Shown here in pieces: positions 7,584 through 13,123 of a stretch of 16,197 nt of DNA (position 1 is its first letter; every line of letters starts with the position of its first letter). The position numbers were made by a program, and so were the translations under genes. The stretch is taken from the IMG/VR virus record IMGVR_UViG_3300006162_000592; one strand, given 5' to 3'. The DNA comes from a virus. The notes under the pieces are model-generated. The model was not told the origin of the DNA and made no database searches. It worked only from the letters and a program-made list of their open reading frames with translations.

Positions 7584-7880
7584 TTATTCTCCGAACACTT
7601 CGCGCACGAGCTTCACTAAGGTGTCGCCGTGGCACCGCTTGCCCTTGCCGTTCTTATTTTTGCACCAGCAGCCCAGCGTTTTGCCTCGAAGTTCACCCAG
7701 CCGCCTCATCAGGTCTCGGTTGCTGCGCACGTGCGCCTCGTACTTGTCGCAAACACAATCTCGCCCGCATCCAACCTCAATCTTGAACGGATTGTGCCAA
7801 GGCGACTCGTTAAACTCCATGAACGCCCGACCGATGTAGACGTCAAAAGGAGCTTTGCGCACGTGTACTACGCGAGTCAT
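7584..7880 (-). CDS. DUF4326-family protein (98 aa)
   Basis: VVHVRKAPFDVYIGRAFMEFNESPWHNPFKIE...GKTLGCWCKNKNG...CHGDTLVKL matches the DUF4326 signature as I remember it (VYIGR...S.WGNPF...GK.L.C.C.P..CHGDVL). There is an ATGA overlap with the upstream small ORF. Confidence 0.55.
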   Translation of the reverse strand: MTRVVHVRKAPFDVYIGRAFMEFNESPWHNPFKIEVGCGRDCVCDKYEAHVRSNRDLMRRLGELRGKTLGCWCKNKNGKGKRCHGDTLVKLVREVFGE

Positions 7881-10305: not shown

Positions 10306-10543
10306 CGCCGTCCTCGGAGCCTAAGATGATGTCCGCGCCCTTGATGTCTTTCTCAAACTGTTCCTGAAGGATGGAAACATGTTCCTTACATGTTGCGACG
10401 ATGCTGTCCTGCACAAACTCCGGGTTGGCAGGCACGCCATCAACGATCTCGGCGTCCAAGGCAAAAGTGTAAGCCACAACGGGCTTTTTACCGCAGAACG
10501 TGCAGACCAAGCTGTCCTTGTCTATTTGGTCTAAGAATCCCAT
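10298..10543 (-). CDS. small CxxC protein (81 aa), paralog of 10060..10305
   Basis: GGGGGA lies before ATG 10543 (MGFLDQIDKDSLVCTFCGKKPVVAYTF...). Confidence 0.5.
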   Translation of the reverse strand: MGFLDQIDKDSLVCTFCGKKPVVAYTFALDAEIVDGVPANPEFVQDSIVATCKEHVSILQEQFEKDIKGADIILGSEDGDA

Positions 10544-10578
10544 CAGAAATGTCCCCCACTTACTTAGATGCTACTACA

Positions 10579-10737
10579 TTAAAGCGCGGCGCGGAGAATC
10601 AGCTTAAAATATCCCCACAACGCCACGAAAAAGATAACCACGTCGTCCCATCCAAGGTCACCGTCCGCAAGCATCAGGGCAGCCACGGCAGCCCAGTACG
10701 CGGCGGACTGAACCCACTTCTTGTGGAGCCAGCTCAT
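10579..10737 (-). CDS. small membrane protein (52 aa), below the track's ORF cutoff
   Basis: Hand translation gives MSWLHKKWVQSAAYWAAVAALMLADGDLGWDDVVIFFVALWGYFKLILRAAL, with two hydrophobic segments. There is an ATGA overlap with the upstream stop (10734..10737). Confidence 0.45.
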   Translation of the reverse strand: MSWLHKKWVQSAAYWAAVAALMLADGDLGWDDVVIFFVALWGYFKLILRAAL

Positions 10738-10937
10738 TTACAACTCCGACAACTCATGTCGCCATAATCGGCAATGTACTCTGGGGAGCACCACATGCAG
10801 CAGTCGCAGACGACCGTCTCGTAAGGACGTGCATACTTGGCCCAGTAGCCTCCAGAAACATCGTAGAAGCCGCTAGTAAACGTGTCGCCCCAGTTTCCCT
10901 CAACGTTTTTCTTGCACCTATCACAATGTACCAGCAT
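10734..10937 (-). CDS. small Cys-rich protein (67 aa)
   Basis: ATG at 10937 gives MLVHCDRCKKNVEGNWGDTFTSGFYDVSGGYWAKYARPYETVVCDCCMWCSPEYIADYGDMSCRSCK. The TGAtATG junction follows the kinase gene. Confidence 0.5.
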   Translation of the reverse strand: MLVHCDRCKKNVEGNWGDTFTSGFYDVSGGYWAKYARPYETVVCDCCMWCSPEYIADYGDMSCRSCK

Positions 10938-10938
10938 A

Positions 10939-11454
10939 TCACTTGCCTGCCAAGCGTTCGTAGAGGTTCTTCCGGTAGGCAATCAACCGAGGATAACAAC
11001 GTACGACTGCATGCGACGCGAACTCACCGGGAAGCTGGTCAAATTGGTCTCCCCAGATCAAGGGCTTGGGGTTAGAAAGATAACGCTGGAGCAGCGCCTC
11101 ATCCGTGTCCTCAAAGTACGTCACCGAGGTCAGGCTTTTCATCCGGTCGCAAATTGCCTCGCTCATGTACACCACGCTACCCGATGTGTCCAAGATGATG
11201 TTTTCTTCGCTGGCTTGGATTTCGTCCAAGGCCTCGTTCATAGACGACACTTCACACTCCAAATATCGCTGCTCGCGCTCGCGGTAGCCGGGTTCGTCCG
11301 GCCAGCCCATCCAGCTCGCCACACTGCCCACATCTGCGAGACCAAGCTTCTTCGCGATCATGTCGTCAATGCCGATGACGTGGAAAGTGCCGGATAGCTT
11401 CTGCGCCCAGTAGGACTTTCCAGCCCCGGACATGCCGATAAACGACAACTTCAT
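10939..11454 (-). CDS. P-loop kinase, shikimate-kinase / NMP-kinase-like fold (171 aa)
   Basis: MKLSFIGMSGAGKSYWAQKL...HVIGIDDMI... has a Walker A GxxGxGKS right at the N-terminus followed by a DxD-like segment, as in shikimate kinase, adenylate-kinase-like and polynucleotide-kinase-like enzymes. The substrate cannot be assigned by eye. Confidence 0.55.
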   Translation of the reverse strand: MKLSFIGMSGAGKSYWAQKLSGTFHVIGIDDMIAKKLGLADVGSVASWMGWPDEPGYREREQRYLECEVSSMNEALDEIQASEENIILDTSGSVVYMSEAICDRMKSLTSVTYFEDTDEALLQRYLSNPKPLIWGDQFDQLPGEFASHAVVRCYPRLIAYRKNLYERLAGK

Positions 11455-11633
11455 TCCTGTGCCTTCTCTATTGCCTCTATAGCTGCCTCTGTCTCCGCTA
11501 CCAGCTTTGACATCTCATCTCGGATGTGTTTCAACCGGATGACTTTGACTCGCGAAGGACGGTCTGAGTTTTCAATTTCTTCAGCAAGAGCTGCCAATTC
11601 CAAGCGTCTAGCTGTATGGAAATCAATGTCCAT
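11451..11633 (-). CDS. small acidic helical protein (60 aa)
   Basis: MDIDFHTARRLELAALAEEIENSDRPSRVKVIRLKHIRDEMSKLVAETEAAIEAIEKAQE. There is an ATGA overlap with the downstream kinase gene. Confidence 0.45.
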   Translation of the reverse strand: MDIDFHTARRLELAALAEEIENSDRPSRVKVIRLKHIRDEMSKLVAETEAAIEAIEKAQE

Positions 11634-11641
11634 GTTCGCCT

Positions 11642-11992
11642 CTACCAGGTGATCTTCATTCCGCCGCTCTGGTACTCCTCCACAGCATAGCCTTCGTTGC
11701 GAAAGTGGTTCATCAGCATCTCGTGGATCGGCAGGTCGGCGTCCTTGACCCAGATGACCTCGTCTCCGTTGGGGTTCAGGTCAGACGGCGCGTAAGTGCC
11801 GTGGTGCCCCTTCGCTGCCGCTGTCTTGATGTAACCCTCAACCTGCGAGACCAGCGCGGAACCGCGCTTCTTCCAAAGCGCCTCAGCCTGCTTGGTCTTT
11901 TTGACGAGGGTTGCCCTGTATTCCATTTCGTGGTCACGTTGCAGCTTGGCGATGGCTCGCTTCGCCTTTTCCCGTGCCTCTGTTGCGTTCAT
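11642..11992 (-). CDS. hypothetical protein (116 aa)
   Basis: GAGGGGG lies before ATG 11992 (MNATEAREKAKRAIAKLQRDHEMEYRATLVKK...). There is a TAATG overlap with the PTH2 stop. The Arg-rich N-terminal extension in the track is discarded. Confidence 0.5.
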   Translation of the reverse strand: MNATEAREKAKRAIAKLQRDHEMEYRATLVKKTKQAEALWKKRGSALVSQVEGYIKTAAAKGHHGTYAPSDLNPNGDEVIWVKDADLPIHEMLMNHFRNEGYAVEEYQSGGMKITW

Positions 11993-12273
11993 TATTCCCC
12001 CTCTTCGCCGTCTTCTTCTTCCTCGTACCAGCATACCACGGTGTGGGAGCCAGCGGGAACCTCTGTGTAGCCCGCGTCGGTGACAACGTAGCCCTCCGGG
12101 TGCGCTTGGACGGCCTCATAGAACTTTTTGGTGGAGGCTTCCAGCACGACACAAGACCAGTGGTCTTGCGGGTCTTTCTTGTACAGCCCGATGCCCGCGT
12201 GGACACACTGCGCCGCGACCTTGCGTTCCGACATTCGCAGGTTCTTGTGGATGAGCATCTTGATCTTCTTCAT
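11992..12273 (-). CDS. pth2: peptidyl-tRNA hydrolase, PTH2 (archaeal/eukaryotic type) family (93 aa)
   Basis: MKKIKMLIHKNLRMSERKVAAQCVHAG...DAGYTEVPAGSHTVV matches the PTH2 core as I recall it (human PTRH2 [25 protein letters not shown] ... DAGRTQIAPGSQTVL). Confidence 0.7.
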   Translation of the reverse strand: MKKIKMLIHKNLRMSERKVAAQCVHAGIGLYKKDPQDHWSCVVLEASTKKFYEAVQAHPEGYVVTDAGYTEVPAGSHTVVCWYEEEEDGEEGE

Positions 12274-12302
12274 GTAAGTAGAATACCACAGTAGGGAGGA
12301 TT

Positions 12303-12399
12303 TGGTAGCGGACCTCGGAGTCGAACCGAGCCGGGCACCCCAATCTAGGGCGACATCACGGGTTTATAAGACCCGCCCGCACAACCAGTGCTGTCCGCT
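12303..12399 (-). tRNA. atypical long tRNA (97 nt with CCA); best anticodon loop CUUAUAA gives anticodon UAU, which would read AUA
   Basis: On the minus strand it has a perfect 7-bp acceptor stem AGCGGAC/GTCCGCT, discriminator A73 and an encoded CCA. The T-arm is canonical (CTCGG TTCGACT CCGAG). The anticodon arm CGGGT-CTTATAA-ACCCG has U33 and A37. The D region is short (GCAC TGGTT GTGC), and a 28-nt variable region contains a second hairpin CGCCC-TAGATTG-GGGTG. It does not fit class I or class II cleanly. Confidence 0.5.
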
Positions 12400-12403
12400 A
12401 ATC

Positions 12404-12492
12404 TGGTGCGAGCGACAGGATTTGAACCTGCACTCCCCCGTAGGGGAAGGAGGGTTTAAGTCTCCGGCGTCTGCCAATTCCGCCACGCTCGC
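12404..12492 (-). tRNA. tRNA-Leu (anticodon UAA, reads UUA/UUG)
   Basis: Acceptor GCGAGCG/CGCTCGC, A73 and CCA. D arm is GCG-GAATTGGCAGA-CGC (E. coli Leu-like). Anticodon loop is CTTAAAC. Long variable arm TTCCCCTACGGGGGAG. T loop is TTCAAAT. Confidence 0.85.
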
Positions 12493-12497
12493 AAACT

Positions 12498-12587
12498 TGG
12501 CGGAGACGGTGGGATTCGAACCCACGGTACCAGTTACGGTACACACGCTTTCCAAGCGTGCTCCTTAAGCCACTCGGACACATCTCC
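12498..12587 (-). tRNA. tRNA-Ser (anticodon GGA, reads UCC/UCU)
   Basis: Acceptor GGAGATG/CGTCTCC, G73 and CCA. D arm is TCC-GAGTGGCTTAA-GGA. Anticodon arm is CACGC-TTGGAAA-GCGTG. Long variable arm. T arm is TGGG-TTCGAAT-CCCA. Confidence 0.85.
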
Positions 12588-12592
12588 AAACT

Positions 12593-12684
12593 TGGCGGTG
12601 GGCGAGAGAGTCGAACTCCCAACGGGCCGTTAGACCCGTAACTGTTTTCAAGACAGCCGGACTTGCCAATGTACCAAGCCCACC
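12593..12684 (-). tRNA. tRNA-Ser (anticodon UGA, reads UCA/UCN)
   Basis: Acceptor GGTGGGC/GCCCACC, G73 and CCA. Anticodon arm is GCTGT-CTTGAAA-ACAGT. Long variable arm CGGGTCTAACGGCCCG. T loop is TTCGACT. Confidence 0.85.
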
Positions 12685-12796
12685 GAACTACTCGCAGGGA
12701 ACAAAGTGTCAAGGTGTCGCGGCGTCGAAGCCCCAAAGCCTTTCGGCTTTTCTATCCAGAAGTAACCTTGTCAAACACCGCTGCGATCTAAAATTT

Positions 12797-12888
12797 TGGC
12801 GGAGAGGACAGGAGTTGAACCTGCAACGGGCTTTTATACCCGTAGTCGTTTTCGAGACGACCGGACTTGCCAGTGTACCAACCTCTCC
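12797..12888 (-). tRNA. tRNA-Ser (anticodon CGA, reads UCG)
   Basis: Acceptor GGAGAGG/CCTCTCC, G73 and CCA. Anticodon arm is GTCGT-CTCGAAA-ACGAC. Long variable arm CGGGTATAAAAGCCCG. T loop is TTCAACT. Confidence 0.85.
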
Positions 12889-12889
12889 A

Positions 12890-12979
12890 TGGCGGAGAAT
12901 GAGGGATTCGAACCCCCGGTCCCCTTGCGGGGACTCAGGTTTAGCAAACCTGCGCGATCAGCCGCTCTGCCAATTCTCC
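12890..12979 (-). tRNA. tRNA-Ser (anticodon GCU, reads AGC/AGU)
   Basis: Acceptor GGAGAAT/ATTCTCC, G73 and CCA. Anticodon arm is CAGGT-TTGCTAA-ACCTG. Long variable arm GTCCCCGCAAGGGGAC. T arm is GGGGG-TTCGAAT-CCCTC. It is separated from the previous tRNA by 1 nt. Confidence 0.85.
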
Positions 12980-12984
12980 GTTAC

Positions 12985-13024
12985 CGCAAGACAACAAAAA
13001 AGCCGCCTGACTTCGGCGGCTGGT
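12985..13024 (-). terminator. intrinsic terminator between the leader ORF and the first tRNA
   Basis: Minus strand has a 7-bp G/C-rich stem AGCCGCC / GGCGGCU with loop GAAGUCA, followed by UUUUUUGUUGU. On the + strand the hairpin is preceded by an A-run, not followed by a T-run, so it is orientation-specific. Confidence 0.65.
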
Positions 13025-13051
13025 TGCGATCTCTGTGTTTGCGTCTATTGC

Positions 13052-13123
13052 TTACGCGCCCACACCTTCGCCCCAGCCCATTGCTGAGCTACTAGAGGAC
13101 GATAATGTGGATATGAATGCCAT
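13052..13123 (-). CDS. leaderless 23-codon leader peptide MAFISTLSSSSSSAMGWGEGVGA, rich in the codons decoded by the downstream tRNA array
   Basis: The ATG 13123..13121 lies 6 nt after the -10 hexamer. Codons are ATG GCA TTC ATA TCC ACA TTA TCG TCC TCT AGT AGC TCA GCA ATG GGC TGG GGC GAA GGT GTG GGC GCG TAA. That is ATA, TTA and all six Ser codons consecutively, each once, plus an extra TCC. It is below the track's 60-aa cutoff. Confidence 0.6.
   Translation of the reverse strand: MAFISTLSSSSSSAMGWGEGVGA

Follow-up and report, generated by a model that had tools for sequence, protein, structure and literature searches.

A predicted mini-PTH2 beside a serine tRNA array and an accessory P-loop kinase in an uncultured, probably large phage

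Layout of the locus

The window analyzed here is the whole stretch of 16,197 nucleotides (nt) of the IMG/VR virus record IMGVR_UViG_3300006162_000592, and it consists of a single minus-strand gene train. Two of its open reading frames (ORFs) are the subject of this study. An earlier note, made from the letters alone, had taken them for a PTH2-type peptidyl-tRNA hydrolase and a P-loop kinase with an N-terminal Walker A motif, and had joined both with the neighboring tRNA genes into one functional island. The two ORFs were found exactly at the positions and with the lengths in amino acids (aa) that had been given for them:

11992-12273, minus strand: mini-PTH2, a predicted peptidyl-tRNA / N-blocked aminoacyl-tRNA hydrolase, 93 aa, with an acidic C-terminal tail
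10939-11454, minus strand: P-loop kinase with a predicted shikimate-kinase fold, 171 aa, residues 7-14 form the Walker A motif GMSGAGKS

Both ORFs are genuine genes and not chance ORFs, because the first scored above the Pfam threshold for PTH2 (see below), homologues were found for both (58 for PTH2 and 266 for the kinase), and the ratio of nonsynonymous to synonymous substitution rates (dN/dS) was low in comparison with the orthologues in one of the related loci, L003 (0.055 for PTH2 and 0.155 for the kinase). Both are under purifying selection. With somewhat better than even confidence it is proposed that the region contains two unrelated things, namely a translation-support unit of tRNAs and PTH2, and a separate accessory metabolic kinase.

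The 93-aa protein and the PTH2 family

The 93-aa protein matched the Pfam family PF01981 with 36.1 bits (gathering score 23, E 8.3e-9), and the match covered positions 4-96 of the 115 positions of the profile. The best sequence match in the PDB was human Bit1/PTH2 (1q7s). Two motifs, K-V-AAQC-HA and D-A-G-Y-T-E-V-P-A-G-S-H-T-V, could be aligned with human and archaeal PTH2, with K18, D66 and T70 in register. Among 28 members of the family, with identities down to 48%, the residues K18, Q22, H25, A26, D66, G68, T70, E71, G75 and T78 were invariant. The conserved Lys of K-x-AAQ-x-HA and the Asp and Thr of D-A-G-x-T are reportedly active-site residues of S. solfataricus Pth2. The AlphaFold model had a predicted local distance difference test score (pLDDT) of 91.9, and the best 14 Foldseek matches in the PDB were all PTH2 structures. 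Their template modeling (TM) scores on the query ranged from 0.47 to 0.75, and all were at least 0.63 but the lowest, which belonged to the nuclear magnetic resonance entry 1rzw. Judged by profile match, motifs and modeled fold, the 93-aa protein belongs to the PTH2 family, as had been assumed. Because it combines a PTH2 fold with the catalytic-site motifs, it is predicted to hydrolyze the ester bond of peptidyl-tRNA or of N-blocked aminoacyl-tRNA.

The protein was further compared with canonical archaeal and eukaryotic Pth2, i.e., human PTRH2/Bit1 (1Q7S), A. fulgidus AF2095 (3ERJ), P. horikoshii 1WN2, M. jannaschii 2ZV3 and S. solfataricus 1XTY. The core of a four-stranded sheet and the motifs K-x-AAQ-x-HA and D-A-G-x-T-(E/Q) were common to the phage protein and its canonical counterparts. 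Size and architecture were different, and this weighs against the predicted function. With four strands and two helices in 93 aa, the phage protein is smaller than the canonical proteins, which have 116-120 aa and four helices. The C-terminal helix is absent, and an acidic tail is found instead. In addition, the scores were far below the cut-offs of the NCBIfam equivalogs (37.6 versus 82 and 34.2 versus 126). As two of the four canonical helices are absent, activity is not guaranteed. These features would fit a protein that has kept the PTH2 fold, is catalytically inactive and acts as a tRNA- or ribosome-binding factor. However, the residues of the conserved motifs did not vary across the 28 diverged members, the low dN/dS of the gene indicates strongly purifying selection, and a loss of catalysis is thus regarded as very unlikely. 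The compact form of about 90 aa is widespread: a profile search gave E values below 1e-10 for 153 clusters formed at 50% identity, and many of these had 75-100 aa. In PHROGs, only families of "unknown function" matched PTH2, and nothing useful was retrieved for the kinase.

The idea that PTH2 is rare in phages proved to be wrong. PTH2 has been published for jumbo phages (Iyer et al., PMC7824862) and within tRNA arrays of mycobacteriophages (PMC5966550). The cases from groups 2 and 3 of the jumbo phages (Iyer et al. 2021), from cluster C mycobacteriophages (PMC5966550), from Vibrio phage ICP1 and from the cultured Pseudaeromonas phage KLEP7 resemble the present one in that a large phage encodes a short PTH2 close to genes for tRNAs or tRNA maturation. 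In KLEP7, gp109 is annotated as a Pth2 of 93 aa and lies near genes for a CCA-adding enzyme. PTH2 beside tRNAs in a phage is therefore a known arrangement, and the window is a further case. Two differences were observed. The copy in the window is only 34-40% identical to PTH2 of cultured phages, and here it is tied to a dedicated set of tRNAs for all serine codons behind a leader peptide and a terminator.

The tRNA array and its link to PTH2

As had been stated, PTH2 lies directly downstream of a tRNA array. The following RNA genes were found:

12404-12979, minus strand: array of five tRNA genes, Ser(GCU), Ser(CGA), Ser(UGA), Ser(GGA) and Leu(UAA), called by ARAGORN
12304-12400, minus strand: sixth tRNA-like gene with the anticodon loop CUUAUAA (anticodon UAU, reads AUA), uncalled by ARAGORN in the window

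All five tRNAs of the array are of the class II type with a long variable arm, and the four serine isoacceptors cover all six serine codons. No RNA was recognized in a gap of 112 nt inside the array (12685-12796). The arrangement recurs: four tRNA-Ser genes next to PTH2 were present in seven of ten related loci (the window, L001, L003, L004, L005, L057 and L061). The serine isoacceptors were accompanied by Leu-UAA or Ile-UAU and were located within about 1 kilobase (kb) of PTH2; in L057 the last tRNA of the array falls just after PTH2. The remaining three loci (L058, L059 and L060, with a PTH2 of 59-64% identity) had no tRNA within 3 kb, which weighs against a fixed link between PTH2 and the tRNAs.

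The sixth tRNA-like gene ends 31 nt before the ATG of PTH2. Its acceptor stem has 7 bp, its variable arm is long and its T-arm carries GGUUCGACUCC; the minimum free energy of the cloverleaf was -43 kcal/mol. The only Rfam model that matched was tRNA-Sec, with 30.5 bits and an E value of 1.3e-4, below the gathering score. The gene is 96% identical in L001/L002 and 86% identical in L004, and in L005 and L061 ARAGORN called a tRNA-Ile(UAU). It is a candidate for a tRNA with a class II body that reads AUA and would be charged with Ile, Ser or Leu. L003 is without this gene. In the same locus, a gene for an HNH endonuclease (5400-5882, minus strand) is inserted on the opposite strand right behind the array and overlaps the call of tRNA-Leu; such genes are already known to accompany tRNA arrays in phages (PMC5966550).

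In the window, no terminator-like site was detected on the coding strand between the array and PTH2, and PTH2 is likely to be co-transcribed with the tRNAs. One feature points in the other direction. PTH2 has no Shine-Dalgarno sequence, and an extended -10-like motif (TGnTATTCT, TGGTATTCT) is located 6 nt before its ATG, a spacing that is also found at the leader ORF described below. Because of these two properties, PTH2 may have its own promoter rather than depend on read-through from the array.

It was also considered whether PTH2 acts mainly in counter-defence, i.e., whether it deacylates aminoacyl-tRNAs that were N-acetylated by GNAT toxins, or clears peptidyl-tRNAs after cleavage by host nucleases. 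Cellular Pth has been described as a detoxifier of tRNA-acetylating toxins of the TacT type (PMC9241777), Iyer et al. propose that phage PTH2 handles peptidyl-tRNA after tRNA cleavage (PMC7824862), and PTH2 is accompanied by a complete set of replacement serine tRNAs. However, no defence or anti-defence family was matched (PADLOC gave no defence-family match among seven proteins of the region), and an experimental paper on phage PTH2 was not found in a literature search. Furthermore, ATA, TTA and A/T-ending serine codons are more frequent in the phage genes than in a small sample of Terriglobia genes, and thus codon supply explains the tRNAs equally well. A role mainly in counter-defence is therefore judged to be unlikely.

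Leader peptide, promoter and terminator ahead of the array

Upstream of the first tRNA, three features were found that together precede the array and PTH2:

13130-13158, minus strand: sigma-70-like promoter TTGACA-17-TACTAT, 10 of 12 matches, the -10 element ends 6 nt before the ATG of the leader
13052-13123, minus strand: leader ORF of 23 codons, MAFISTLSSSSSSAMGWGEGVGA and stop, containing the codons ATA, TTA, TCG, TCC, TCT, AGT, AGC and TCA
12991-13021, minus strand: intrinsic-terminator-like hairpin followed by a T-run, 7 pairs including 6 G-C, just before the first tRNA

The leader thus contains AUA, UUA and all six serine codons, and these are the codons that are decoded by the tRNAs downstream. 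A leader with a run of 6-8 serine codons and ATA is kept in L001, L003, L004, L005 and L061. In L005 and L061 the leader is without TTA but has ATA; both loci have tRNA-Ile(UAU), and tRNA-Leu(UAA) was not found in the stretches that were fetched. An equivalent promoter lies ahead of the leader in L001, L003 and L005, while L004 has a -10-like TATTAT. The terminator is kept with compensatory changes in six loci. A second hairpin further upstream, in which the run of serine codons pairs with the G-rich end of the leader, is also conserved and shows compensatory changes. The leader regions are located at 12985-13160 (minus strand) in the window, 8600-8780 in L001, 4670-4853 in L003, 8460-8668 in L004, 8570-8751 in L005 and 1553-1720 in L061.

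Leader and terminator look like a putative ribosome-mediated attenuator of the tRNA genes. The similarity to the attenuators of the his, thr, leu, phe and trp operons comprises a short ORF rich in regulatory codons, a hairpin involving these codons, and an intrinsic terminator ahead of the regulated genes. The differences are that regulation would apply to the cognate tRNAs, and probably to PTH2, instead of to biosynthetic enzymes, and that the leader samples each synonymous serine codon once. No leader-peptide attenuator of tRNA genes was found described in a single literature search. It is tentatively suggested, with a confidence clearly below even, that PTH2 is the protein arm of a supply circuit of the phage that senses stalling ribosomes and is composed of the leader-attenuated tRNAs and the hydrolase. 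Decoding of the leader codons would falter when host tRNAs are depleted, cleaved or inactivated, and read-through of the terminator would then supply both replacement tRNAs and a hydrolase to release tRNAs that are caught as peptidyl-tRNA.

Fold and family of the kinase

The best match of the 171-aa protein to a Pfam family was SKI (PF01202), just under the threshold (21.1 bits, gathering score 22.1). The scores for the NCBIfam family AroK (24.7 bits versus 195) and for AAA_33 (20.5 bits versus 27) were also below the respective thresholds, and Zeta_toxin gave no match in the Pfam scan. With hhalign, the kinase was aligned with E. coli AroK at a probability of 95.9%. In the PDB, Foldseek ranked shikimate kinases at all of the first 20 places. 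The TM-scores were low because the structural model was only moderate (pLDDT 67), and the quality of the model counts against the fold assignment. A phmmer search of the PDB with the kinase alone retrieved nothing; only the profile of the family reached shikimate kinases, and marginally. Foldseek and hhalign thus agree with the earlier proposal of a P-loop kinase with a shikimate-kinase-like fold.

The earlier note had also named a clear shikimate or gluconate kinase with its full substrate-binding motifs as a finding that would refute its reading. The predicted fold is that of the shikimate kinases, the full set of motifs is not there. The Walker A motif, the second Asp of DxD, the Arg of F/Y-R-x-x-E and the helix R-x-x-L-Y-E could be aligned between AroK/AroL and the phage kinase, and in the hhalign alignment with AroK the second Asp and both Arg (F-R-x-x-E and R-x-P-L-Y) are matched. 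In contrast, G/S stands in place of the first Asp of DxD, (T/S)-G-S in place of GGG (S-G-S in the hhalign alignment), and KP(L/V)(I/L)W in place of RPLL of the lid. Moreover, the protein ends at about residue 148 of AroK, and strand beta5, the adenine-binding loop and the C-terminal helix are absent.

Much closer relatives are found in cells. The kinase is 60-69% identical to a family of 212-213 aa that is abundant in metagenome-assembled genomes of Acidobacteriota/Terriglobia. Compared with these cellular relatives, the phage kinase is without the last 36-40 residues, including the adenine-binding segment, which weighs against an unaltered activity, and without an insert of 7 aa. The copy in L003 stops at the same place as that in the window. 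Downstream of the stop of the kinase no remnant of the C-terminus was detected, and the next ORF encodes a conserved Cys-rich protein that is also present in relatives without the kinase. The motifs Walker A, DD, YRE, DT(S/T)GS, PKP, RCYP and RK-x-LY are kept. Of the 68 alignment columns conserved among the cellular proteins, both phage copies retain 53.

Directly downstream of the gene for the cellular kinase, and mostly overlapping it by a few bases, thrC was found in 44 of 48 genome loci. The linkage includes a distant relative of 39% identity. In the Terriglobia loci L006-L048, the kinase gene is located at 4001-4639 and thrC starts at 4633; the name given by the Joint Genome Institute is "shikimate kinase". 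Phage and cellular copies alike had their best NCBIfam match in NF040667, a shikimate-kinase-like homoserine kinase of Desulfovibrio. Its founding member, DvMF_0971, complements E. coli thrB (Price et al. 2018, PMC5764234), and a gap at ThrB is common in reconstructions of bacterial genomes (PMC7311316). The phage kinase scored 28.3 bits and the cellular kinases 32.6-36.1 bits, and as these values are far below the cut-off of 197, the sequences place the Terriglobia family in a clade separate from NF040667. Based on the adjacency to thrC, the cellular 212-aa family probably represents a clade of homoserine kinases in Terriglobia that had not been described.

The phage kinase is thus best described, from its sequence, as a C-terminally shortened relative of this thrC-linked family of putative homoserine kinases. 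With DvMF_0971 of Desulfovibrio vulgaris it shares the type of a P-loop kinase with a shikimate-kinase fold, and its cellular relatives are likewise tied to threonine synthesis, via thrC. It differs from DvMF_0971 in being C-terminally shortened and in having no thrC neighbor. Because the cellular relatives are translationally coupled to thrC, the phage kinase most likely uses ATP to phosphorylate L-homoserine or a comparable small hydroxyl compound; the exact activity is uncertain. Several points weigh against a homoserine kinase, in addition to the low NF040667 scores. Gene neighborhood is the sole basis of the homoserine assignment of the cellular family, and the phage gene has neither thrC nor hom as a neighbor; thrC is absent from the window and also from L003.

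The absence of this partner also fits the view that the shortened kinase has been repurposed and now uses another hydroxyl substrate, acts as an NTPase, or serves as a substrate-binding decoy that perturbs the threonine/methionine metabolism of the host. The same segments (beta5, the adenine loop, the last helix and the 7-aa insert) were lost in both phage copies, 15 of the 68 columns conserved in cells are altered, and the phage clade forms a long branch that is sister to the sampled Terriglobia sequences. On the other hand, all of the motifs listed above are kept, and a dN/dS of 0.155 is that of a constrained protein. Repurposing is possible but rather doubtful, and the phosphorylation of a small molecule is the preferred reading.

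The kinase as an accessory insertion

PTH2 and the kinase are separated by 538 nt, with the kinase downstream on the same strand. Two small genes lie between them, and a third small gene follows the kinase:

11642-11992, minus strand: protein of 116 aa, the ATG overlaps the stop of PTH2 (TAATG)
11451-11633, minus strand: protein of 60 aa, the stop overlaps the ATG of the kinase (ATGA), upstream flank of the kinase insertion
10734-10937, minus strand: Cys-rich (zinc-ribbon-like) protein of 67 aa, downstream flank of the kinase insertion

The 116-aa protein had no significant family match and no tblastn match at 1e-4 in the related loci. Orthologues of the 60-aa protein were found in L001, L002 and L003. 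In L001 and L002, the orthologues of the 60-aa and the 67-aa gene are adjacent, with no kinase between them. Among phage-like loci, the kinase was present only in the window, in the contig P0059, which is 99% identical, and in L003; it was not found in L001, L002, L004 and L005, nor in a scan of IMG/VR. Therefore, the kinase is an accessory insertion in two phage lineages and not part of the conserved module of PTH2 and tRNAs. In a neighbor-joining tree, the phage clade was sister to the sampled Terriglobia sequences, and the thrC-linked outgroups were outside both, which fits a capture of the kinase from the host lineage. The earlier concept of one functional island of PTH2, kinase and tRNAs is thus not supported.

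The same is true for the proposal that the kinase is a polynucleotide or tRNA 5'-kinase, which together with PTH2, the tRNAs and a distant ligase would repair nuclease-cut tRNA in the manner of T4 Pnk/Rnl. The location on the same strand shortly downstream of PTH2, with no predicted promoter between, would be compatible with such a function, and a ligase could be encoded farther off in the genome, as the search covered the window and flanks of related loci. However, the family profile matched T4 Pnk (1ly1) only at profile positions 6-40, i.e., the P-loop, with an E value of 0.83, and no PNK was among the top 50 fold matches of the kinase. The similarity to the T4 system of Pnk and RNA ligase is confined to the class of the P-loop NTPase fold. 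The kinase is a single domain of 171 aa without a 3'-phosphatase domain, and no RNA ligase, RtcB or phosphatase domain was found in the window or in the fetched flanks (20-kb flanks of four related loci). The statement of the earlier note that no ligase is visible in the window holds, and it extends to these flanks. In addition, the close relatives are cellular kinases coupled to thrC, and most related loci with the tRNAs and PTH2 are without the kinase. RNA repair is therefore regarded as extremely unlikely. A PSTK-like seryl-tRNA kinase, which was prompted by the serine tRNAs, was also rejected, based on the 60-69% identity to the thrC-coupled cellular enzymes and on the absence of the kinase from most phages with serine tRNAs.

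Phage lineage, further genes and probable host

Apart from short tRNA matches, no relative of the region 10500-13200 was found at the DNA level among cultured phages (megablast and blastn). Relatives of PTH2 are encoded on metagenomic contigs of 121 kb (L001), 438 kb (L004) and 454 kb (L005), which have dense small genes on the same strand and hardly any Pfam matches, and further relatives were found on eight viral contigs of IMG/VR. The lineage is probably one of large, jumbo phages. Neither a capsid gene nor a terminase gene was noticed in the stretches that were inspected. The host is probably a bacterium of the Acidobacteriota/Terriglobia, as suggested by the kinase that is shared with, or was captured from, a Terriglobia lineage.

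Besides PTH2, one other gene downstream of the tRNA array is shared by all five related loci. It encodes a DUF4326 protein and is located at 7584-7880 (minus strand) in the window, 15108-15407 in L001, 10721-11020 in L003, 12999-13313 in L004 and 12891-13202 in L005. Upstream of the tRNA unit, two minus-strand genes (13338-14483 and 14480-15430) had only sub-threshold matches to INT_rpt (19-25 bits versus 26.5).

At the left end of the window, long plus-strand ORFs between 33 and 6378, including one of 660 aa (33-2015) and one of 234 aa (3178-3882), were considered as genes and were rejected as antisense shadows, based on the phase of substitutions in comparison with L003. The substitutions were concentrated on codon position 1 (0.29-0.45 versus 0.06-0.15), which corresponds to position 3 of the minus-strand frames, and the minus-strand ORF 3160-3879 had the normal excess at third positions. 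The real gene at this end is 3-1838 on the minus strand, which runs off the left end of the window and encodes a major-vault-protein-like protein (Pfam MVP_shoulder with 84.8 bits and E 5.9e-24, Vault_3 with 41.7 bits). An orthologue of this gene is located at 15790-17337 in L004.

Meaning for phage and host

Taken together, the translation-support unit would comprise the promoter, the leader ORF, the terminator, the four tRNA-Ser genes, tRNA-Leu(UAA), the UAU tRNA-like gene and the mini-PTH2, which would bring tRNAs caught through drop-off or stalling back into the pool. The kinase would have been acquired from, or be shared with, the host lineage, would have been inserted between two conserved small genes, and would provide an auxiliary metabolic function rather than 5'-phosphorylation of RNA. 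This result corrects an attractive but wrong story of RNA repair. The capture and shortening of a Terriglobia kinase by a phage points to Acidobacteriota as the host, and the cellular family itself is a lead, as it probably fills the place of the missing homoserine kinase in these bacteria. For PTH2, the known phage pattern of a location beside tRNAs is extended to an uncultured lineage of probably very large soil phages. The most valuable by-product is the codon-matched leader with its terminator, by which a regulated supply of phage tRNAs becomes directly testable.

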